DNA from: Candidatus Fraserbacteria bacterium | GTDB lineage: Bacteria > Bipolaricaulota > Bipolaricaulia > RBG-16-55-9 > DRXL01 | Assembly (NCBI GenBank): GCA_037440025.1 | Contig: JBBIUX010000002.1 | Span: 82,975-146,974 of the forward strand | DNA: 64,000 nt | Reading direction: 5' to 3' | Shown here: positions 2,769 to 22,890 of the stretch, one piece after another | Position numbering within the stretch: the first letter of the stretch is position 1 | Layout of the letters: every line of letters begins with the position of its first letter | Notes under the pieces: model-generated | What the model was told of the DNA's origin: nothing | Databases searched by the model: none | The model's input: the letters and a program-made list of their open reading frames with translations, nothing else | Program-made: the position numbers and the translations under genes

Positions 2769-3200
2769 TTAACGCTCCCCGCCCAACCTCAGACGCTCCC
2801 GCAGGCGCGTCTTGATGGGCAGCTTATACCCAACCAGCTTCTGAATCTGTTGCGCTTTGGCGCGATGTACCCCGCTGATCTCAAAGAGAATCCGCCCCGG
2901 CAACACGACAGCGCACCAGCCCACCGGGTCCCCCTTCCCCTTGCCCATGCGCGTCTCTGCAGGCTTCTTCGTCATGGGCTTATCGGGAAAGATGCGCACC
3001 CAGATTTTTGAGTTTTTCTCCAGTTCGCGCACCATCACGGTTCGACATGACTCGATCTGCTGGGCCGTGATCCACGCGGGCTCCAGCGCTTGAATGCCAA
3101 ACTCCCCAAAAGCCACCTGAGAGCCGCGAATGGCCTTGCCCTTGCGATTGCCGCGATGGTCTTTTCTAAACTTGCGCTGCTTGGGCGCCAGTAACGCCAC
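2769..3200 (-). CDS. rplP: 50S ribosomal protein L16
   Basis: ...[37 protein letters not shown]..., the L16 family. Probable GTG start at 3200 (V5 of the track ORF) gives (M)[12 protein letters not shown]. It overlaps the rpsC 3' end. The exact start is uncertain. Confidence 0.85.
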
Positions 3201-3846
3201 GGGCCTCACCACCTCGTGCCGGGTAAATGTCTCCGCGATAGAGCCAGACTTTGATCCCGATCATGCCGTACTTTGTCAGTGCTTCGGCCAATCCATAGTC
3301 AATATCAGCGCGGATCGTTTGTAGGGGAACCCGCCCGGCTTTGGTCTCAATCGAGCGAGCGATCTCGGCCCCGCCCAGGCGACCACCACACCGGATTTTG
3401 ACACCCTTGGCGCCATGTTCCATGACCCGCTGGGTCACTTCTTTCATGGCGCGTGGGGCTGGGATTCGGTTCTGTATCCGCGAAGCCACATCTTCAGCAA
3501 CCAAAATCGCCTCTAAGTCTGGGTGATCCACTTCTTTGATATATATCTTAACCTTGCGCGTGATCGCCTCTTCGAGTTCTCTTTGGAACTGGTCGATCTC
3601 TTGTCCTCCCTTGCCGATAATGATCCCCGGCCGAGCCGTATAAATCAAAATTGAAACCAATTCTTCTGTAGGGCGTTCAATGCTCACCTTGGCGATCCCT
3701 GCGCCGTGATAGCGCTTCTTAATCAAAGTCCGGATCTGCTGGTCCTCTTTAATATACTCCTGGGCTTTTTTCTCCGAGAACCAGTTCGACTTCCATTTCT
3801 TGTTGATTCCCAAGCGAATTCCGTATGGATGCGTCTTGTGTCCCAT
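3166..3846 (-). CDS. rpsC: 30S ribosomal protein S3
   Basis: 226 aa, [23 protein letters not shown]..., with KH and S3-C domains. Confidence 0.93.
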
Positions 3847-12006: not shown

Positions 12007-12747
12007 TCAATGTCGCGAAAGTTGTGTAATTTGAGAAGCCCCGCTTTGGATCTGTCTGTGCGCTTCTAACAGGCTCATGTCCAGATACCTCCTCAGCGCC
12101 CACTCCTCCGTCACGCGTATCCCGACCGTCGTGGTGAGCACCACCAGGCTCTGCTCGTTGGGGAAGACGCCCACCACCCGCGTCCGCCGCTTGATCTCTT
12201 GAAAGAGCCGCTCCAGCCCGTTGGTGGTGCGAATCCGCCCCTGATGCCCGCTGGGAAAGTCCAAATACGTTAAGGCCTCAATGATCCCGTTCTCGAACAC
12301 CTCCACCGCCTCAGAGAACTCGGCTTTCCAACGACCGCTGAACTGCTCTGCCAGAGCTTCTGCAGTCTCGCGTCGCCGCACCGCAAAGATCGCCCGAAGA
12401 TCCGCGGCTACCTCAGCCTTGGAGACGCCCTGCAAGTACATCTCTAGCACGGCTTCTTCCACCGAGCCGGTCAGCCAGCGGTAACGCTCAAACAACTCCG
12501 TCTGGAAGGTGCCCTCTCGATCACGGGGCACTCGCAACTGCTGAATCTGCCCCACGCCGGTGACCAGATCCCGCTCATACTCTCCGTTGCGTCGGCCCTT
12601 CCGTGTCGGGGAGCGTTGGTAAGGAGTCGCGCCTAGGTGTACGGTCAGTTCCTCTTCCAGAATCTGCTCCAGCAGCGCTTTGACGCCCTCGCGCACGCGG
12701 GTCTCCAGGTCTTGCTTCACCGTCTCTTCCAGCTCTTTCCGCTCCAT
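12007..12747 (-). CDS. IS256 (mutator-type) transposase, internally deleted: N-terminal and C-terminal segments only, DDE core absent
   Basis: ...HLGATPYQRSPTRKGRRNGEYERDLVTGVGQIQQLRVPRDREGTFQTELFERYRW...YLQGVS... gives the IS256 N-region. ...IRTTNGLERLFQEIKRRTRVVGVFPNEQSLVVL...WALRRYLDMS gives the IS256 C-region. About 150-170 central residues are missing. Confidence 0.65.
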   Translation of the reverse strand: MERKELEETVKQDLETRVREGVKALLEQILEEELTVHLGATPYQRSPTRKGRRNGEYERDLVTGVGQIQQLRVPRDREGTFQTELFERYRWLTGSVEEAVLEMYLQGVSKAEVAADLRAIFAVRRRETAEALAEQFSGRWKAEFSEAVEVFENGIIEALTYLDFPSGHQGRIRTTNGLERLFQEIKRRTRVVGVFPNEQSLVVLTTTVGIRVTEEWALRRYLDMSLLEAHRQIQSGASQITQLSRH

Positions 12748-15568: not shown

Positions 15569-15707
15569 AATCGTTCTGCAAGAGATCACGCCGGCAGTCA
15601 TCTCGAAAGACCCCCGGCTGCGCCGAGAACGCTATGCGAATCGGAGTCTACCCAGCAGTTCGGGCTTCGCGGCTTGACCCTGTTGAAGCGTTGAGATACG
15701 AATGAAA

Positions 15708-17504
15708 CTATCGCCGCCCGAACTTTTTCTCTAACTCTTCTAACGAATACACCAACACAACCGGTCGTCCATGCGGGCAGCTATACGGGTTCTGCGCTCG
15801 CTTCAATTGGCGCACCAGTTCTTGCATCTCTTCAAGTCGTAACGACTGGTTCTTCACCACGGCGCCTTCGCACGCCACCCGCGCTGCCAACGTCTTGGCA
15901 AGCTCCTCCAGCGTCGGCTCGGCTTCGTGTTCGAGGACGGAGAGCATTTGCTCGATCGCTTCTTTGAAATCGGCCTTGCTCCAGTCGCTCGTCAGCACTT
16001 GCGGCCAAGCTCTCAGAATAAAAGTCCCGCCGCCAAAGTGCTCAAGACCAATTCCCACGCGCTCGTCCAACTCTTTCCGGTGAGCCGCGAGGAGTTCAGC
16101 TTGATCTGGCGGCATTTCAATAGTGACCGGGATCAGGAGCCGCTGGCGCACGATCTTGCCCTCTTTCAGTTGAGCGAGAAATTTTTCGTAGAGAATTCGC
16201 TCGTGGGCCACGTGTTGATCAATGATCTCTAAACCAGACTCCGTCTGAACTAAGATATACGTCCCGTGGAGTTGGCCCAACACGCGAAAGGCAGACACGG
16301 GCTCGGTGGCTGCAGGGGAGGGAGAAGGTGGGGCAGAGAACTGGCGGCGTTCTTCTATCTCTGTGCGCAGATCGAGCTGCGCGGAGGGAGAGGCCCTTAC
16401 TCCTGATTCTTCACCCTCACCTCCATCTCCTCTCCCCTCGGAGGGAGAGGGGAGCAGAGGGGTGAGGGGTGAGGGGCTAGGGGGAGAGGTTGGGAGTTTT
16501 TCAAACCTCGGCATCGCATGAGCTGACGTGAGCGCCCTGGTGATCGCCTGTTTGACAAGAGCTTGCACTTTGATCGGCTCGGCAAAGCGCACTTCGGCCT
16601 TTTGGGGATGCACGTTTACATCGACAGCTTGTGGGGCAATCTCGATGAAGAGAAAGATATACGGGTGCTGCTCGCCCTTGAGAAGACTGTCATAAGCCAT
16701 CGAGATCGCGTAATTGATCTGGGGGTCTTTCACAAAGCGCCCGTTGACGAAGATGAATTGTTCGGTTCTATCTGAGCGCGTCAGCTGAGGTGCGCTGATC
16801 AGCCCGTGAATTTTCAGCCCGGGGATTTCGGCGCGCGCGTCGAGCAGCGCTTTCGCCAGCTCAGCATTGTAGAGATGAGCGATAGCCTGACGCAGATCGC
16901 AGCTTGGCGGGGCGTCGAGAATTTTTTTCGCATTATGTTCAGCGCGAAAGTGTACGCTGGGGTACGCGAGCACAAAACGCTTGATCGTTCGCACAACATG
17001 AAAAAACTCCGTCTTTTCGGATTTCAAGAACTTCCGGCGCGCCGGAAGGTTAAAGAACAGTTCGCGGACATCTATCGTCGTGCCACGGGCGCGCCCAGCA
17101 GCTTTTACAGATGTGATGTGCCCGCCCTCGATCTCAGCGCGCACGCCCTCCGGCGCCGCTTCGCTTTTGCTGATAATCACCGTCTTGGAGACCTCGACGA
17201 TGCTGGCAAGCGCCTCGCCGCGAAAACCGAGCGTGCGAATGTCAAACAGATCGTCTTCAGAAGAGATTTTGCTCGTCGTATGGCGCTGAATGGCTAACAA
17301 TACATCTTCTTGGCTCATGCCCTCGCCGTCGTCAGCGACACAGAGGCGCTGCTCGCCGCTGCCTTCGACGAAGAGTTCAATCTTCGTCGCCCCGGCATCA
17401 AGAGCGTTTTCGATCAATTCCTTGGCAACTGATGCAGGACGCTCGATCACTTCCCCCGCGGCGATCTTGTTCACCAAGTGCGAATCCAAGACTTTGACTT
17501 TCAT
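15708..17504 (-). CDS. mutL: DNA mismatch repair protein MutL
   Basis: 598 aa with N-terminal GHKL ATPase motifs (...IAAGEVIERPASVAKELIENALDAGAT...) and C-terminal dimerisation domain. The linker contains a palindromic-repeat insertion. Confidence 0.9.
   Translation of the reverse strand: MKVKVLDSHLVNKIAAGEVIERPASVAKELIENALDAGATKIELFVEGSGEQRLCVADDGEGMSQEDVLLAIQRHTTSKISSEDDLFDIRTLGFRGEALASIVEVSKTVIISKSEAAPEGVRAEIEGGHITSVKAAGRARGTTIDVRELFFNLPARRKFLKSEKTEFFHVVRTIKRFVLAYPSVHFRAEHNAKKILDAPPSCDLRQAIAHLYNAELAKALLDARAEIPGLKIHGLISAPQLTRSDRTEQFIFVNGRFVKDPQINYAISMAYDSLLKGEQHPYIFLFIEIAPQAVDVNVHPQKAEVRFAEPIKVQALVKQAITRALTSAHAMPRFEKLPTSPPSPSPLTPLLPSPSEGRGDGGEGEESGVRASPSAQLDLRTEIEERRQFSAPPSPSPAATEPVSAFRVLGQLHGTYILVQTESGLEIIDQHVAHERILYEKFLAQLKEGKIVRQRLLIPVTIEMPPDQAELLAAHRKELDERVGIGLEHFGGGTFILRAWPQVLTSDWSKADFKEAIEQMLSVLEHEAEPTLEELAKTLAARVACEGAVVKNQSLRLEEMQELVRQLKRAQNPYSCPHGRPVVLVYSLEELEKKFGRR
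16405..16490. repeat. GC-rich nested palindromic element (copy inside the mutL linker coding sequence)
   Basis: CACCCTCACC...CTCTCCCCTCGGAGGGAGAGGGGAG...GGTGAGGGGTGAGGGG. Encodes the in-frame PSPSPLTPLLPSPSEGRGDGGEGEE stretch of MutL. Confidence 0.55.
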
Positions 17505-17642
17505 GGGCGTTCTCTGTCACAATAGCAAAAGAGAAGGGAGCTGACAAATGACATAGTGAGCGCGACCAAGCTAGGAATTCTAGGACAGTAGATACTAAGC
17601 CTAGTTGCGCGATGCTCGAATCTTCCATATATTGAAAGCATC

Positions 17643-19295
17643 ATGACTCAAGATTACAAGGTGAGAGGAGCAGTTTGGACCCCACAGCCTATCGCTGAAC
17701 TGCTGGTCACCTGGGCTGTTTGCTCGGCTACCGACTCGGTGCTCGATCTAGGCTGTGGTGAAGGCGTCTTTCTCTGCGAAGCCATCAAGAGGCTCAAATC
17801 CTTAGGTGCGCCCGTAGAACAAATTGCCTATCAGCTTTCTGGGGCCGAACTGGATCAGGCTACCTACAAGGAGTTACAAGACAAATTGGAACAGTCACTA
17901 GGTCTGGTCCCGCCTCATGTGTACTCGGACGACTTTTTCAAGGCCGAATTTCCTCAGGTTGAGGCTGTTGTTGGGAACCCACCTTATGTAAGGCGTTGGT
18001 GGCTAGACGGTCTTGATGAAATACGATATGTCATCAGCGATACAGCGATAAACTTCTCTCGTTCTACAGATCTAGCTTGCTATTTCGTAGTTCACGCTGC
18101 GAAATTCTTGAAACCGGGAGGCCGACTGGCGCTCATTCTCACCGATAGTTGGCTTGATATGGACTATGGGGTGAACTTCAAGAGGTTCTTACTCGGCCGC
18201 TTCAAGATCCGTGCGATTATCGGCTTTGAAGCTAAAGTCTTTCCCGAACATCTGATCAAGGCCGTTTTGCTCCTGGCAGAAAAACGGAGTAGTGCTCCTC
18301 AAAACGAAACACACCTTCACACGGCCTTCATCCGCTGGAAAACCCTACCCTCACCTTTGGATTGGGACGCTGCTCTCTCTGAAGGTTCACCCTATGCCAT
18401 CAGTGTTTTGGTTAAACCACAGAGTGACTTAAGGCCTAAGGAATCTTGGGGTAAATTTCTCTACGCGCCCCCAACATATTTTCACCTCGCTCAACACCCC
18501 CGACTAGTACCTTTACAAGCCCTGGCCAAGACGCGCATCGGCTTCCAGAGCTTTTGCAAACAATTCTATATTGTGCCAGCGAGATCTCCATGGCCCGTTG
18601 AACCACAATACCTGAAGCCCCTCATCCACTCGCCGAAAGACATTTCTGGTCCCGTCCTGAGCCCAACACAGCCCGCTAAGCACTTTTTGCTTTACTGTGG
18701 TGAGCCCCAGAGCAAGCTTGCAGGAATGCAGGTGCTCCGTTACATTGAATGGGGAGAGTCCCAGAAAATTATCCCACGAGGGAAGGACCAAGAAGTAATC
18801 GGCTTTCACAACCTGCCCCGTGTTAGACGCGCCAGCAGGCAGCCCTGGTACAACGTGGTACCTGAAGTGAATCGCCGAGGAAGCTGGCCCGTTTTGCTTT
18901 TTCGGCGGATATTCAAACGCTATACAGTAATCTGGAATCAAGCTGGTTGGATCGCAAACGAGAATTTTATTGAGCTGCAGCCTAAGCCTGGAGTAAATCT
19001 GTTATCATTGTTAGCCTTTCTGAGCTCTTCTTTTGCCGAACTGCTTTTCCGAGCCCATGCCCATCGCTACGGAGGGGGGGTCTACAACCTCAACCCAGGA
19101 GACATTCGGAGTGTCCCCGTGCTGAACATCCTGAAATTAAGCGAAAATGAACGAAGGCAATTGGCGACAGCCTACGAGTCTTTCCTGTTTTCGGAAGGGC
19201 GAGATCGCCAAGCGCTGGACCAAGTGATTGCGAGCGTCTTAGGCTTAGAAACACCTTCTTTAGAAGACCAGGCCGAGGAAAAACTTGGAGTCTAA
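17643..19295 (+). CDS. N6-adenine DNA methyltransferase, gamma class (Eco57I/PstI-like type II MTase)
   Basis: Motif I VLDLGCGEGVFL (SAM binding) near aa 35 and motif IV VVGNPPYV (NPPY) near aa 112. A C-terminal region about 400 aa long is consistent with a target-recognition domain. Lower GC than the flanks. Confidence 0.65.
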   Translation: MTQDYKVRGAVWTPQPIAELLVTWAVCSATDSVLDLGCGEGVFLCEAIKRLKSLGAPVEQIAYQLSGAELDQATYKELQDKLEQSLGLVPPHVYSDDFFKAEFPQVEAVVGNPPYVRRWWLDGLDEIRYVISDTAINFSRSTDLACYFVVHAAKFLKPGGRLALILTDSWLDMDYGVNFKRFLLGRFKIRAIIGFEAKVFPEHLIKAVLLLAEKRSSAPQNETHLHTAFIRWKTLPSPLDWDAALSEGSPYAISVLVKPQSDLRPKESWGKFLYAPPTYFHLAQHPRLVPLQALAKTRIGFQSFCKQFYIVPARSPWPVEPQYLKPLIHSPKDISGPVLSPTQPAKHFLLYCGEPQSKLAGMQVLRYIEWGESQKIIPRGKDQEVIGFHNLPRVRRASRQPWYNVVPEVNRRGSWPVLLFRRIFKRYTVIWNQAGWIANENFIELQPKPGVNLLSLLAFLSSSFAELLFRAHAHRYGGGVYNLNPGDIRSVPVLNILKLSENERRQLATAYESFLFSEGRDRQALDQVIASVLGLETPSLEDQAEEKLGV

Positions 19296-20179
19296 TGGCG
19301 ACTGCTCGACAAGAAACGATTCTTAAGGCCATTGCTGCGGTTTTGGAGGCCATTGGCTTCCCTCGCCGCTGGAATACGAGGCAGACAGGGTACTGTCTTC
19401 TGGGGCTGCTTGACAAGACGCCGCGTAAAGGCTTGTTACCCGGCAAGACTTGCTTAAATGACGGGGCTCGCATCCATGACATCTTGGAATTCGTCCGAAA
19501 GACATTCCGCGTTAAGGTTGCCGAAAATACAAGAGAGACCTATCGAAAGACCTCTCTCAAGCAACTATTCGACCACGGACTCATCACGCGAGTGCAATCT
19601 TCAACTAATGATCCCAATACGCATTATATCCTCAACCGGGAATTTGAGAAAACGCTGCGCACCTATCTGGAAGCGCCACTCCAACGCAGAACTCAGATTC
19701 TATCCTCATTTAAGAAACCGTCAGTCATTTCAGAAGAGATCGCTGACAAGCGCGGTGTAAGAGTTACAATAGGGGATAACGTTATAGAACTCAGCCTAGG
19801 CCATCATAACCAGTTGGTCAAGCAGATTATAGAAATCTTTGCATCTGCTTTTGTGGACGATCCGGAAGTTCTGTATATAGGTGACACCGCCCATAAGCTC
19901 AAGTATCTCGGTCAGACAGCTGAGAAACTGGGGATTTTCCTTGATGAACATGCCAAGGCTCCTGATGTAATCTTGTACTCAAAAAGCAAGAACATCGTTT
20001 ATATCATCGAAGCCGTCATCAGCAGCGGGGTTTTCTCGCCAGATCGCGTACAGGATGTCGAGAGGGTCTTGTTCGGAGGGCAAGGGAAACAATTCGGTGT
20101 CGAGTATTTTACGGCCTTTCCAGATCGTGCGACCTTTCGCAAGTTCGTCGAAGAAATTGCTTGGGGGACTCAAGTCTAG
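19295..20179 (+). CDS. Candidate cognate restriction endonuclease (inference from context; no motif-level proof)
   Basis: 294-aa ORF translationally coupled to the MTase (TAATG overlap at 19293-19297), in the same low-GC island. Its size fits type II REases such as the PstI/BsuBI family partners of gamma-class A-MTases. Confidence 0.3.
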   Translation: MATARQETILKAIAAVLEAIGFPRRWNTRQTGYCLLGLLDKTPRKGLLPGKTCLNDGARIHDILEFVRKTFRVKVAENTRETYRKTSLKQLFDHGLITRVQSSTNDPNTHYILNREFEKTLRTYLEAPLQRRTQILSSFKKPSVISEEIADKRGVRVTIGDNVIELSLGHHNQLVKQIIEIFASAFVDDPEVLYIGDTAHKLKYLGQTAEKLGIFLDEHAKAPDVILYSKSKNIVYIIEAVISSGVFSPDRVQDVERVLFGGQGKQFGVEYFTAFPDRATFRKFVEEIAWGTQV

Positions 20180-20226
20180 CTGGCGCAAGAGCCGTTTGGT
20201 GTCATTATCTTTCGGAGATGGAGATG

Positions 20227-20748
20227 AAGCGTGTCTGGTTCGTCGGACTGCTCTGTCTAGCATGGAATGTGAACGCTTCGGCCCAAGAACGCGCGCCCAG
20301 TCTCGGCATCGCTACGAGTTGGATGGAACTAGACAACTTTCAGCCGGCGTTGCCGACGTTTACGATATCTCAGAAAGTTTTGCTGCTGTCGGTACGCGGG
20401 GAGACGCAGATTGAAACGGGGGTGGCGTTGCGCTTGGCCGGAGGCTGGGGCTTTGCGTTTGAGGGGCCTCCTGTGGGAATCGCCCATTATGAGACTGCCC
20501 TAGCTCTCAACTTCCCCTTTGGGCGGGCGAGCGCATCCATTGAGCTTGGCTCTGGGATTCTCCATTTGACGCAGAATGCCGAACAGGCGTGGCGGCTGAC
20601 GGGCTGGGTCGGTGCTGGAGGGAGATTTTCGCTCGTCTCAAAAATATCTGTCTTCTTTGACGTCGTGCCCTTGGTGCTGCTCGACTTCAGCCAACCAAGC
20701 CTGCCGCGGGTTTGGAGCTATCGTGGCGGGGCGCTGTGGCGGTTTTAG
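20227..20748 (+). CDS. Secreted hypothetical protein
   Basis: Start at MKRVWFVGLLCLAWNVNASAQE (signal peptide). The track N-extension is rejected. Confidence 0.5.
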   Translation, partial: KRVWFVGLLCLAWNVNASAQERAPSLGIATSWMELDNFQPALPTFTISQKVLLLSVRGETQIETGVALRLAGGWGFAFEGPPVGIAHYETALALNFPFGRASASIELGSGILHLTQNAEQAWRLTGWVGAGGRFSLVSKISVFFDVVPLVLLDFSQPSLPRVWSYRGGALWRF

Positions 20749-22619
20749 CTTGCCCGCCGCACGCGAACGGTTCCCCCCTGCTTGTGAGCTTCATAAATTC
20801 TCTCCGCGGGCTCGCTTCCGCGGACTAACTTAATACTCCCCGCGCGCGAGACCGACCCGATGAAGACGGGCTCGCCGTCTACTACGATTTCGATATTGCG
20901 CCCGCGCAGACTGGGGTCTAAGTCCACAATCACGTGCCGGTCGCTCACTTCTATGTCTATATCTTGATGGAGCGTCACCTCCATCTCGTCGTAGGAACGG
21001 ACATCAAGCCCGATGCCCAGCTCGGCTTCGAGCTCACGAATTCGGCTGCCCCCGCGGCCTAAGATCACGGGAATCTGGTCTTCGTCAACATAAAGAGTTG
21101 CTTGGTTGTCCGAGCGTATCTCGACAGTGAACCCGCCGCGCACCACCTTGCGCAGCTCGTGTTCTAAAGCTTGCGTTGCTAACCGCCAGACAGGTTTCTC
21201 CGTAGCGACTTCCTTCACTGGCATCACCACAACCTGTTCACCGAAGCTGTAGATTTCATAGACCAACCCTTTGGACTCGAATTCCCTGATCTCGATCACC
21301 GGGCGAGCCAAGTCTGAATCTCCCATGCCGCTGGGCACTTTCACTGTAAACTCGACTTCATAGATCTCTTTCACGTCACCGGCTTCGATGAAGACGACCG
21401 TGTCCACGACTTGCGGGATCATCCCCAAATCAACGCGCCCAATGAGTCGTTGCACGGCGTCAATGCCACGCGTGGCGTGCACCACGCCGATCATCCCCAC
21501 GCCGGCCAAGCGCATGTCGGCAAAGACTTCAAAGTCTTCGTCCACGCGCATCTCGTCAAAAATTGTGTAGTCGGGTCGGACGAGCAATAAAACGTCGGCG
21601 GTCTTCTTCATCTCACCGTTGAGGGCTGTATACTGGGTGATCTCGTCGGAGAGCTCTAGGTCTCTGGGTTTCTCCATTGTTTTAAGAATCCAGCCTGCTT
21701 CTTGGAGATACTCAGCTATCCCCTGGACAAACGTAGACTTGCCTGCCCCCGGTGCCCCGGAGACGAGCACGCCGCGCGAGCGTTCGCGCATGCGCTCCTT
21801 CAGCAAACCAGCATGACTATATTCATCGAGCTTTTTGTGAACGATGGGTCGAACGATAGTGATTTCTAGCGCGTCACTGAAGGGCGGGCGGGCAATGGCG
21901 ACTCGCAGATTTTTGAGCTGTATCACGGTGCTCCCGCCCGCATCCATCTCGATGAACCCGTCGGGATGTCCCTTGGCGACTTCGACGATTTCCCGGGCAA
22001 CTCGTTCCAGCTCTTTTTCCGTCATCAGTTCTTCTTTGAGCGGGACGATCTTCATCCGGCCGGGAGCGCCCCGTTTGGCCTTAGGGCGGGTCTTGGCCCG
22101 CAGGTGCACCGACATCGTTTGCTCATCGAAAAACTGCATGATTTGGAGCTGGTCGAGCCCACGGGCTCCTGCGGCGGCCCCCAAGAAGCGTGTCGGCAAC
22201 CCTTGGGCTTCGCTGACTAAAGACTGGCTGCGGCTGCTGGTGACGAGAACAGCGTCTTCTTCTTCAGCGACAGCGCGCACCATCGCGTGAATCTCGCCGG
22301 TCTCCGCAAGGCGCAACGGGTCGAACCGTGGCCGATCTCCCTTGAACACCAACTCGATCTGGCCTGCCCACGCGAGCTGTTGCATCTGTTTCAGTTCATT
22401 GAGGCCGGCATACCCCGTCTCTTGCCCACGCACAGCTTGGGCTTCCAATAACGCGAGCACAGCATGGGGAACGATAAAAACAGCTTTAGGGAATTTGTTA
22501 TTACGAATTTCTTCAGTGATGCGACCATCAACAATGATGCTCGCATCCAAGACATATCGTTCGGCTCTTGCAGCGTCTTCGTTTGGCAAAGCCTCTTTAC
22601 GAGGTCTAGCTCCAGGCAT
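20745..22619 (-). CDS. PIN domain - PhoH/PilT-like P-loop ATPase - KH domain protein (COG1855-like)
   Basis: N-terminal PIN (...YVLDASIIVDGRI...), central Walker A GAPGAGKST, and C-terminal KH (...VILGRGGSRIRELEAELG...). Confidence 0.7.
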   Translation of the reverse strand: MPGARPRKEALPNEDAARAERYVLDASIIVDGRITEEIRNNKFPKAVFIVPHAVLALLEAQAVRGQETGYAGLNELKQMQQLAWAGQIELVFKGDRPRFDPLRLAETGEIHAMVRAVAEEEDAVLVTSSRSQSLVSEAQGLPTRFLGAAAGARGLDQLQIMQFFDEQTMSVHLRAKTRPKAKRGAPGRMKIVPLKEELMTEKELERVAREIVEVAKGHPDGFIEMDAGGSTVIQLKNLRVAIARPPFSDALEITIVRPIVHKKLDEYSHAGLLKERMRERSRGVLVSGAPGAGKSTFVQGIAEYLQEAGWILKTMEKPRDLELSDEITQYTALNGEMKKTADVLLLVRPDYTIFDEMRVDEDFEVFADMRLAGVGMIGVVHATRGIDAVQRLIGRVDLGMIPQVVDTVVFIEAGDVKEIYEVEFTVKVPSGMGDSDLARPVIEIREFESKGLVYEIYSFGEQVVVMPVKEVATEKPVWRLATQALEHELRKVVRGGFTVEIRSDNQATLYVDEDQIPVILGRGGSRIRELEAELGIGLDVRSYDEMEVTLHQDIDIEVSDRHVIVDLDPSLRGRNIEIVVDGEPVFIGSVSRAGSIKLVRGSEPAERIYEAHKQGGTVRVRRAS

Positions 22620-22890
22620 ATTTCTCCCCCAAGAACACGGCAACTTTTTCTAAAAACTTCTGATCTTTCCCGGTAAACGCGTCAAGTGTGTCGCTGTCAA
22701 TGTCAATCTCTCCGACGACTTTTGAGTTGCTGAAAATGGGGACATAGTAAGACACATGATCTCGTAGAAGAGTGACCGTTTTGTGCAGGGCCGTCTCGAA
22801 ATCCGCTTGGTTGATCTCCTGGCGTAGCACGCTCAATAAGTCCATATTCCCTCCAGAACAAGCATAGCAAGGACTGACGAGTGCGCGCAA
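22606..22890 (-). CDS. Short GAF-like protein resembling only the C-terminal half of free Met-(R)-sulfoxide reductase (possible remnant)
   Basis: ...YYVPIFSNSKVVGEIDIDSDTLDAFTGKDQKFLEKVA resembles the fRMsr C-terminus. The ORF can be at most about 96 aa because gatA ends at 22897. Confidence 0.4.
   Translation of the reverse strand: MRALVSPCYACSGGNMDLLSVLRQEINQADFETALHKTVTLLRDHVSYYVPIFSNSKVVGEIDIDSDTLDAFTGKDQKFLEKVAVFLGEKYAWS

Follow-up and report, generated by a model that had tools for sequence, protein, structure and literature searches.

Restriction-modification (R-M) systems of the EcoGIII/BsuBI/PstI type act on CTGCAG. In the copy used here for comparison, which is carried by Stx2a prophages of E. 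coli strains including O104:H4 and O145:H28, the methyltransferase gene (M) precedes the endonuclease gene (R), and the stop codon of the first overlaps the start codon of the second. The EcoGIII-type enzyme has been shown experimentally to methylate CTGCAG (PMC3893438). The sole solved relative of the nuclease described below is SdaI (PDB 2ixs; CCTGCAGG). Among gamma-class methylases, M.BseCI and M.TaqI modify ATCGAT and TCGA, respectively, specificities that are uninformative about the methylase described here. R-M decay usually begins with loss of the nuclease while the methylase is retained. For example, the endonuclease gene of the HpyAXII system of H. pylori is knocked out by a nonsense mutation, whereas the methylase is conserved (PMC2588503).

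Here, we have analyzed a 64-kb stretch of a Bipolaricaulota genome (hereafter the window) that contains a related pair of genes beside mutL. We consider it likely that these genes represent an ordinary PstI/BsuBI-type cassette that was inserted beside mutL, and that its nuclease has been truncated by a nonsense mutation whereas its methylase is intact. The features of the locus are as follows (positions refer to the window):

15708–17504, minus strand: mutL (598 aa), a flanking host gene outside the cassette; Pfam MutL_C and DNA_mis_repair, motifs DQHVAHERILYE and CPHGRP.
17494–17523, plus strand: promoter-like site TTGACT-18-CACAAT with an upstream TG, in the 5′ end of mutL, from a consensus scan.
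17548–17551, plus strand: left ATGA, the ancestral start codon of h174, now heading a two-codon mini-ORF (ATG ACA TAG).
17552–17642, plus strand: 91-bp leader of the inserted cassette; part of it is conserved at two orthologous sites that carry the cassette (L058 and L003) but not in the cassette at L002, which lies in an unrelated context.
17643–19295, plus strand: intact gene for a gamma-class N6-adenine DNA methyltransferase (550 aa), with motif I, NPPY, a C-terminal target-recognition domain (TRD) and profile matches.
19295–20179, plus strand: truncated gene for a BsuBI/PstI-family type II endonuclease (294 aa), with an N-terminal wHTH and a C-terminal PD-(D/E)xK-type domain; D224 and E239 retained.
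20177–20179, plus strand: premature amber codon TAG, a G-to-A change at 20178 in a conserved TGG (Trp) codon that is TGG in L058 and L003.
20180–20227, plus strand: remnant of the endonuclease 3′ end, in frame, encoding LAQEPFGVIIFRRWR and then the ancestral TGA stop.
20224–20227, plus strand: right ATGA, in which the h174 start codon overlaps the ancestral endonuclease stop.
20224–20748, plus strand: host gene h174 (174 aa) with a signal-peptide-like N-terminus; divergent beside mutL in relatives without the cassette, here downstream of it.

The two cassette ORFs had been given exactly these coordinates in the first-pass annotation. Their junction, gagtcTAATGgcg, contains a TAATG overlap in which one base is common to the TAA stop and the ATG start, and the translational coupling proposed earlier is thus seen in the sequence. 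As in orthodox type II R-M systems, M and R are separate adjacent genes, which is evident from this overlap and from their pairing across loci: a methyltransferase gene lies directly upstream on the same strand in 49 of 50 loci with an endonuclease homolog, and the same M and R pair occurs in an unrelated genomic context at L002. No controller (C) protein or other accessory gene was found in the insert, which holds only the two ORFs and the 91-bp leader. With regard to the earlier proposal of a type II R-M system, the M-then-R cassette therefore stands, whereas its status as a working system is put in doubt by the amber codon in the nuclease gene.

The composition of this segment is deviant. 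Its GC content (positions 17643–20179) is 49.9%, compared with 56.1% for the rest of the 64-kb window, and it is the lowest-GC stretch of its length in the window, ∼3 SD under the mean of sliding windows; as few as 0.6% of these windows were equally low in GC and each of them overlapped the segment. GC3 values of the methylase and nuclease ORFs (0.525 and 0.529, respectively) were the two lowest among 52 long ORFs, for which the range extended up to 0.77. The view of the segment as an AT-richer island with distinct codon usage was thereby borne out, and the GC and codon profile that had been suggested as a check reaches its lowest GC and lowest GC3 there. The GC content given earlier for the flanks (58–60%) was right in direction and slightly too high in value, the measured figure being 56–58%.

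In the methylase, motif I reads VLDLGCGEG (aa 33–41) and motif IV reads NPPY (aa 112–115), followed by the long C-terminal TRD, an order that places the protein in the gamma class. NPPY had been expected near aa 112, where it was found; motif I had been expected near aa 35, which was correct in position, but it is a GxGxG variant and not the literal FxGxG. Matches included Pfam N6_Mtase (1.1e-17) and Eco57I (1.3e-15), PADLOC MTase_II (2.1e-45, spanning aa 4–502) and, in PDB, M.BseCI (2.4e-8) and M.TaqI (1.3e-3); PF22837 (M_Eco57I_C) was also recorded for the 550-aa protein, whereas no NCBIfam name could be given, all matches being far under the family cut-offs. The protein is full length, keeps every invariant column in an alignment with five homologs and has a dN/dS of 0.13 against L058; judged by its sequence, the gene is intact. 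Its assignment in the first-pass annotation as a gamma-class N6-adenine methylase like M.TaqI and M.PstI holds for the class but not for the likeness to M.PstI: the M.EcoGIII-like enzyme of the Stx2a prophage is 25% identical (E 2e-8) over aa 9–240 only, that is, the catalytic domain, and nothing was found in the TRD. The M.PstI/M.BsuBI/M.EcoGIII subfamily was considered and rejected, because full-length similarity to this M.EcoGIII-like relative of CTGCAG methylases was absent. Across the loci of the endonuclease family, 13 have a methylase of the window type and ∼36 others one of the EcoGIII/PstI type. Plasmid relatives of the methylase were just 21–26% identical and annotated as 'N-6 DNA methylase'.

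The 294-aa product matched PF17728 (BsuBI_PstI_RE_N, wHTH; 3.2e-15, 56.6 bits against a cut-off of 27, aa 11–127), PF06616 (3.2e-37, 127.7 bits against a cut-off of 27, aa 157–294, profile positions 3–139 of 154) and PADLOC REase_II (1.7e-44). SdaI was matched by phmmer (1.7e-20 and 76.7 bits, rising to 3.5e-24 and 88.8 bits with the tail restored) and also ranked first in a Foldseek search (2.1e-22) with the modelled structure of a homolog of 85% identity. Both D224 and E239 occur in the ORF and are invariant across the family (95 sequences), and the recognition-helix motif AENTRETYRK is likewise invariant in 95 nuclease homologs. These matches confirm the earlier suggestion of a possible PstI/BsuBI-type enzyme, and by sequence the ORF is a member of the BsuBI/PstI family by descent, in the form of a truncated copy; a complete catalytic domain, including the C-terminal W...E...F hairpin, is not present in it. 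A total of 245 homologs were found, and almost all of the 120 among the matches listed are 303–324 aa long.

It had previously escaped notice that this ORF is shortened at its 3′ end: its TAG actually replaces a conserved Trp codon. Trp occupies this position in 14 out of 14 and 12 out of 12 homologs (two alignments), and also in SdaI and the EcoGIII-like enzyme. W296 and E300, which are invariant in 95 sequences, are both lost with the last 16 residues, and the lost segment comprises 2 of the 28 family-invariant positions and two near-invariant ones (F307 is near-invariant). Downstream of the stop, the tail LAQEPFGVIIFRRWR is 14/15 identical to that of homolog P0002. In an AF2 model of the 85%-identical homolog (pLDDT 91.7), the lost segment forms most of a beta-hairpin (strands 294–297 and 300–306). 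In a tblastn survey of 49 genome loci, every complete uninterrupted homolog extended to query residue 304–310, the exceptions being contig-end cuts, out-of-frame splits and fragments. Since invariant positions and a confidently predicted hairpin fall within the lost 16 residues, the endonuclease is probably inactive, so that restriction-modification at this locus has likely ceased to work. A reassigned or suppressed TAG was also considered and rejected: TAG ends 14 of the 52 long ORFs, including mutL, and the window encodes Leu-CAG and Gly-CCC tRNAs only, with no suppressor tRNA among them.

It should be noted that a loss of 16 C-terminal residues is not proof of inactivity, as the protein retains its catalytic D224 and E239 and a complete DNA-binding domain. 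If the lost hairpin were dispensable, the 294-aa endonuclease would still cut and the type II system would be fully active, a reading in keeping with the intact wHTH, D224 and E239, with the intact and translationally coupled methylase and with the low dN/dS over the retained part of the nuclease (0.19 against L058). We regard it as unlikely, because the truncation removes two of the invariant and two near-invariant positions together with a confidently predicted part of the catalytic domain, because no complete uninterrupted homolog among the 49 genome loci ends there, and because almost all of the 120 homologs among the matches listed reach 303–324 aa.

The sequence comes from a metagenome-assembled genome, in which the TAG may reflect variation within the population or an error, the latter being less likely for a substitution. 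The corresponding explanation, that the stop was introduced by sequencing or assembly or belongs to a minority allele and that the endonuclease of the population is an intact 310-aa protein, would fit both the metagenomic source and the 15 readable downstream codons, 14 of which agree with the homolog, as expected if the stop were unreal or very young. However, the change is a substitution rather than a homopolymer indel; an independent Logan assembly of run SRR11582161 (L001) has the same TAG and gives an identical 294-aa product, although both assemblies may rest on the same reads; and other decay is present nearby, where a GAF-domain gene has lost 69 codons and a transposase persists only in part. 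We therefore consider an artefact or minority allele quite improbable.

Comparison with related Bipolaricaulota contigs revealed that the cassette is a 2,676-bp insertion with ATGA on both sides. In four relatives (L054, L055, L056 and L057; MutL 76–85% identical), mutL and h174 are immediate neighbors, and R-M genes are absent from the interval. Homology to these empty sites stops at 17551 and resumes at the ATGA at 20224–20227. The occupied locus L058 has the same ATGA overlap, with its endonuclease gene at 2852–3787 and the next gene starting from 3784. Empty syntenic sites combined with the lowest GC and GC3 identify the segment as a horizontally acquired islet, in agreement with the earlier description of a lower-GC island. 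Mobility genes and terminal inverted repeats were not found at the ends of the insert, where just the 4-bp ATGA repeat is present; a 19-nt inverted pair falls outside it, in mutL and h174, both of them host genes. A distance of 5 kb separates the insert from the nearest transposase fragment, and the 69-codon deletion mentioned above affects a GAF-domain gene nearby. In addition, dS was lower for the cassette (0.42–0.70) than for the flanks (1.24–1.31), which hints at transfer of the cassette by homologous recombination as an alternative to one insertion in the subclade. No Pfam family was assigned to h174. The promoter-like site in the 5′ end of mutL, whose sequence is conserved in an alignment of the empty-site relatives L054, L055 and L057, is a candidate promoter of h174 and now perhaps of an M-R-h174 unit, as suggested by the consensus match only.

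In the scenario that we favor, a two-gene promoter-less cassette was inserted into the Bipolaricaulota chromosome exactly at the start codon of h174, and is probably transcribed from the captured h174 promoter. The methylase would methylate adenine within the target site, and the endonuclease, before its truncation, would have cleaved sites lacking this methylation by means of its wHTH and PD-(D/E)xK domain, as SdaI and PstI do. Purifying selection kept the cassette in the lineage before truncation (dN/dS against L058 of 0.13 for M and 0.19 for R). A recent TGG-to-TAG transition at 20177–20179 then removed the final 16 endonuclease residues, which would have abolished restriction; the outcome would be a methyltransferase that still works but stands alone, next to the pseudogene of its endonuclease.

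The target site of the cassette would most likely be CTGCAG or a close relative of it, because a relative of EcoGIII, an enzyme specific for CTGCAG, shares the invariant recognition helix AENTRETYRK. It should also be mentioned that the partner methylase lies outside the CTGCAG-methylase subfamily, which counts against this assignment. No avoidance of CTGCAG is seen in the window, where it occurs 17 times against 22.5 expected (O/E 0.76, rank 26 of 64 palindromes). Pooled O/E was 0.81 (rank 21) for window-type loci, and 0.74 (non-actinobacterial) and 0.56 (actinobacterial) for EcoGIII-type loci; since EcoGIII/PstI-type loci themselves avoid CTGCAG weakly, the avoidance test has no power to discriminate. 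A further proposal, which we find unlikely when its parts are taken jointly, is that the PstI-family clade paired with Eco57I-like methylases (13 loci) has a new, non-CTGCAG specificity, and that anchoring to a host gene aids expression of the cassette and makes its deletion costly. Under such anchoring, h174 would be the distal, ATGA-coupled cistron of an R-M operon. To our knowledge, anchoring of a promoter-less R-M cassette on a host start codon has not been described.

As for mutL, homologs of its product are named 'DNA mismatch repair endonuclease MutL' and come from Candidatus Bipolaricaulota. The DQHVAHERILYE and CPHGRP motifs mark endonuclease-type MutL, which acts in MutH/Dam-independent mismatch repair, and the locus thus differs from a Dam/MutH-type mismatch repair module, which has a non-endonuclease MutL. 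A functional tie, with the methylation mark guiding or interacting with mismatch repair, is hardly credible in spite of the adjacency and of the same mutL-M-R-h174 order in three related genomes, because these three loci share the same junctions and represent one insertion event, four relatives have no cassette at the same site, mutL is near none of the other surveyed cassette loci, MutL carries motifs of methyl-independent repair, and the insertion hits the start codon of h174 and not mutL. The juxtaposition, to which the first-pass annotation had attached meaning through DNA methylation state, looks incidental: relatives of the cassette occur in unrelated contexts and this MutL is of the endonuclease type.

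An annotation pipeline would call the locus an intact BsuBI/PstI R-M system, and NCBI names an 80%-identical relative in this way. As the endonuclease gene is a 3′-truncated copy, the genome probably has a solitary m6A methylase, which, if true, would alter both the expected barrier to foreign DNA and the expected methylome of this uncultured Bipolaricaulota lineage. Close relatives offer empty, occupied-intact and occupied-decayed sites, and hence a clean and datable case of R-M gain and first-step decay. Nothing new in principle is added to R-M biology, and the locus matters mainly for annotation.

Compared with described systems, the methylase shares with M.BseCI and M.TaqI a gamma-class, Eco57I-type catalytic domain and the order of motif I, motif IV (NPPY) and C-terminal TRD, but beyond the catalytic domain no similarity is seen. 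The nuclease shares with SdaI an N-terminal wHTH and a C-terminal PD-(D/E)xK-like domain, and its D224 and E239 align with D233 and E248 of SdaI, which we take to be active-site residues; on the other hand, identity is ∼27%, the C-terminus of SdaI is complete and the SdaI site is 8 bp. K251 of SdaI, presumably also a catalytic residue, aligns with I242; across the PstI-like clade this position is occupied by T or I, and the residue completing the catalytic set must therefore be a different one in all members of the clade. The locus resembles HpyAXII in having a nonsense-truncated R gene beside an intact M gene, and differs from it in family and organism and in that inactivation is here deduced from sequence only. 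With respect to EcoGIII, the methylase falls into a different subfamily of the gamma class (25% identity, confined to aa 9–240), the endonuclease is amber-truncated, and the cassette is a Bipolaricaulota chromosomal insertion rather than prophage-borne. Nevertheless, homology to the EcoGIII-like endonuclease spans the entire protein, lost tail included (30% identity, 7e-39); that enzyme has the same two-domain plan of wHTH and nuclease, and carries the nearly identical helix motif NTRETFRR where the window enzyme has NTRETYRK.

The cassette beside mutL is a restriction-modification (R-M) system that has probably just taken its first step towards decay. Its two genes lie exactly where the first-pass annotation had placed them and are coupled as described there, the methyltransferase stop overlapping the endonuclease start (TAATG). 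The features of the locus are as follows:

17494-17523, promoter-like site TTGACT-18-CACAAT, just upstream of the insert, conserved in empty sites
17548-17551, left ATGA
17552-20227, insert of 2,676 bp between the two ATGA copies
17643..19295, + strand, methyltransferase ORF (550 aa)
19295..20179, + strand, endonuclease ORF (294 aa)
20224-20227, right ATGA

The GC content of the cassette segment was 49.9%, compared with 56.1% in the remainder of the window, which is the minimum for its length in the 64 kb scanned (~3 SD under the mean), and GC3 values of the two genes (0.525 and 0.529) were the two lowest among 52 long ORFs. Thus, the proposed lower-GC island with distinct codon usage was confirmed, but its flanks have a GC content of 56-58% and not 58-60%.

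The 550-aa protein contains motif I LDLGCGEG (aa 34-41), followed by NPPY (aa 112-115) and a long C-terminal domain, and matched Pfam N6_Mtase (1.1e-17) and Eco57I (1.3e-15); the PADLOC type II methyltransferase model spans nearly the whole protein (2.1e-45). Solved structures of gamma-class M.BseCI (2.4e-8) and M.TaqI (1.3e-3) matched the catalytic domain only. These features agree with the suggested gamma-class N6-adenine methyltransferase, which is full length and keeps all invariant columns of its closest relatives. The 294-aa protein carries both Pfam domains of the BsuBI/PstI family (PF17728, 3.2e-15; PF06616, 3.2e-37) and matched PADLOC REase_II (1.7e-44) and the SdaI crystal-structure sequence (1.7e-20); therefore, the earlier guess of a PstI/BsuBI-type endonuclease was correct. 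For structural comparison, we used the AlphaFold2 model of an 85%-identical homolog (pLDDT 91.7), whose sole strong structural match was also SdaI (Foldseek 2.1e-22) and whose N-terminal half looks like MarR-type winged-helix proteins. A methyltransferase gene was found immediately upstream on the same strand in 49 of 50 loci with an endonuclease homolog, 13 being of the window type (40-85% identity) and ∼36 of the EcoGIII/PstI type. On Bacillus cereus plasmid pBCK802 (60646-63153), a PstI-type methyltransferase and a BsuBI/PstI endonuclease are fused into one protein of 835 aa, annotated merely as restriction endonuclease; a PADLOC model with 840 positions is arranged as a fusion in the same way.

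Family membership and gene pairing thus support the proposed type II R-M system, but the endonuclease is truncated by a TAG that replaces a conserved Trp codon. Among the 120 homologs listed, nearly all have lengths of 303-324 aa, and the aligned ones all run past the last residue of the window protein with W-L-A-x-E-P-x-x-(V/I/L)-I-x-F. In frame, the window sequence reads ...AWGTQV, stop, LAQEPFGVIIFRRWR, stop: the TAG stands at the Trp position, and beyond it the homologous tail stays readable as far as the ancestral TGA. At this codon, both orthologous loci, L058 and L003, carry TGG versus TAG in the window, a G-to-A transition at 20178. The lost Trp, shared by SdaI and the Escherichia coli EcoGIII-like enzyme, and the Glu four residues on are 2 of the 28 invariant positions in a 95-sequence alignment. 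Restoring the tail raised the SdaI score from 76.7 to 88.8 bits, and the missing segment comprises most of a confident beta-hairpin in the homolog model (strands 294-297 and 300-306). In a tblastn survey of 49 genome loci, complete, uninterrupted homolog genes all reached query residue 304-310; the exceptions ran into a contig end, were broken up into out-of-frame pieces or survived as fragments. Three findings indicate that the stop is real: TAG is an ordinary stop in this genome (ending 14 of 52 ORFs), no suppressor tRNA was found in the window, and run SRR11582161, assembled independently by Logan, yields the same 294-aa product. Measured against its family, the endonuclease is incomplete, and we infer that the truncated nuclease would be inactive. 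Comparison with L058 gave dN/dS values of 0.13 (methylase) and 0.19 (endonuclease); therefore, purifying selection acted on both genes during most of their past, and the stop arose recently.

MutL homologs identify the host as Candidatus Bipolaricaulota. In four related contigs (MutL 76-85% identical), mutL adjoins the host gene h174 (174 aa) and a PilT-like ATPase gene divergently, with nothing between (empty site, ...GCTGACAAATGAAGCA...). Homology to this site stops at 17551 and restarts at the right ATGA (blastn detects it from 20263); these boundaries and the ATGA at both insert ends place the insertion on the h174 start codon. Apart from a 91-bp leader, the insert holds just the two genes, and its end coincides with the ancestral endonuclease stop codon, which overlaps the true h174 start (AGATGAAG); the former h174 start has become the first codon of a 2-codon mini-ORF. 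Judging from its consensus match, the promoter-like site may now drive both cassette genes and h174. Mobility genes are absent from the insert, as are terminal repeats other than ATGA. L058 (GCA_053494795.1) and L003 share this insertion, including its junctions, and their endonucleases are intact; a cassette 70-74% identical lies in an unrelated context in L002, between murC and an ABC-transporter gene. Between the window (16498-20744) and L058, dS was 0.70 for the methylase and 0.42 for the endonuclease versus 1.31 for mutL and 1.24 for h174, which could reflect exchange between lineages after their split or distortion by atypical codon usage. L003 (JAWAFZ010000105.1), a 3.1-kb contig labelled Candidatus Caldarchaeum sp., is 75% identical to window 17351-20354 and includes h174 and the 5' end of the bacterial mutL (94% aa identity, 53 residues); it almost certainly comes from Bipolaricaulota and was mis-binned into an archaeal MAG.

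The juxtaposition with mutL, previously linked to DNA methylation, is explained by the insertion site: mutL and h174 diverge from an intergenic region of 43 bp, and the cassette sits there on the start codon of h174. Such adjacency is confined to three genomes with this single insertion, and mutL was absent near cassette relatives at every other locus surveyed. Moreover, the window MutL carries DQHVAHERILYE and CPHGRP, motifs of endonuclease-type MutL, a type that operates without Dam/MutH methyl direction. A methylation link is thus not supported. The mutL surroundings are variable on both sides: a 4.4-kb efflux operon (MacB/FtsX permease, ABC ATPase, RND-type adaptor and outer-membrane factor) lies directly downstream of mutL in two empty-site contigs, L054 (9806-14165) and L055, and its first genes are present in the short contig L056; it is absent from L057 and from the window (site ∼15580-15641, just past the mutL 3' end).

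Several neighboring genes were also characterized. A GAF-domain gene (22606-22890, - strand), between the PilT-like ATPase gene and gatA, has 69 codons (207 bp) deleted in frame (junction near 22744/22745); three relatives encode 148-149 aa with a clear Pfam GAF match, versus ∼79 aa from the conserved Met without a GAF match in the window. Besides the truncated endonuclease, this deletion also points to gene decay in this genome. The ATPase (20745-22643, - strand; 624-632 aa) has a PilT/T2SSE-type P-loop domain, C-terminal KH_1 at the Pfam cut-off and KH_2 just above it, and a very weak N-terminal PIN match below cut-off (E 0.065); its identity in relatives (90-97%) is far above that of neighboring genes. 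A Mutator/IS256-family transposase fragment of 246 aa (12007-12747, - strand) matched only part of the 379-position PF00872 profile (8e-49), and gene calling gave no transposase at the equivalent position in either L054 or L057.

With regard to target specificity, the third wHTH helix starts with AENTRETYRK, which does not vary among 95 homologs; the corresponding residues are APNTRETFRR in the EcoGIII-like enzyme and ATGSREDFRK in SdaI. M.EcoGIII, a close relative of the EcoGIII-like enzyme of Stx2a prophages, methylates CTGCAG (PMC3893438). From this comparison, CTGCAG, or a site containing it, would be the most likely target, with moderate confidence. Avoidance of CTGCAG gave no usable signal. 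In the whole window, other palindromic hexamers were strongly under-represented relative to maximal-order Markov expectation (CGATCG, 12 vs 45.6; CTCGAG, 9 vs 33.1; GGATCC, 3 vs 10.0; CCCGGG, 7 vs 20.9), which may be the trace of other R-M pressures that act, or once acted, on this lineage.

On the basis of these results, the annotation should be corrected to a likely solitary methylase beside a truncated endonuclease gene. The window and its relatives also offer a clean series that runs from an empty site through an occupied-intact to an occupied-decayed one. Loss of the endonuclease gene by nonsense mutation with the methylase retained is documented, for example, for HpyAXII in Helicobacter pylori (PMC2588503). 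Compared with the EcoGIII-like system, the endonuclease is 30% identical across its full length and by descent belongs to the PstI/BsuBI/EcoGIII-type family, whereas the methylase is only 25% identical, over the catalytic domain only. The suggested M.PstI likeness therefore did not hold, and the methylase represents another gamma-class subfamily. Judged from its sequence, the locus would resemble a PstI/BsuBI/EcoGIII-type orthodox type II R-M system in its working.
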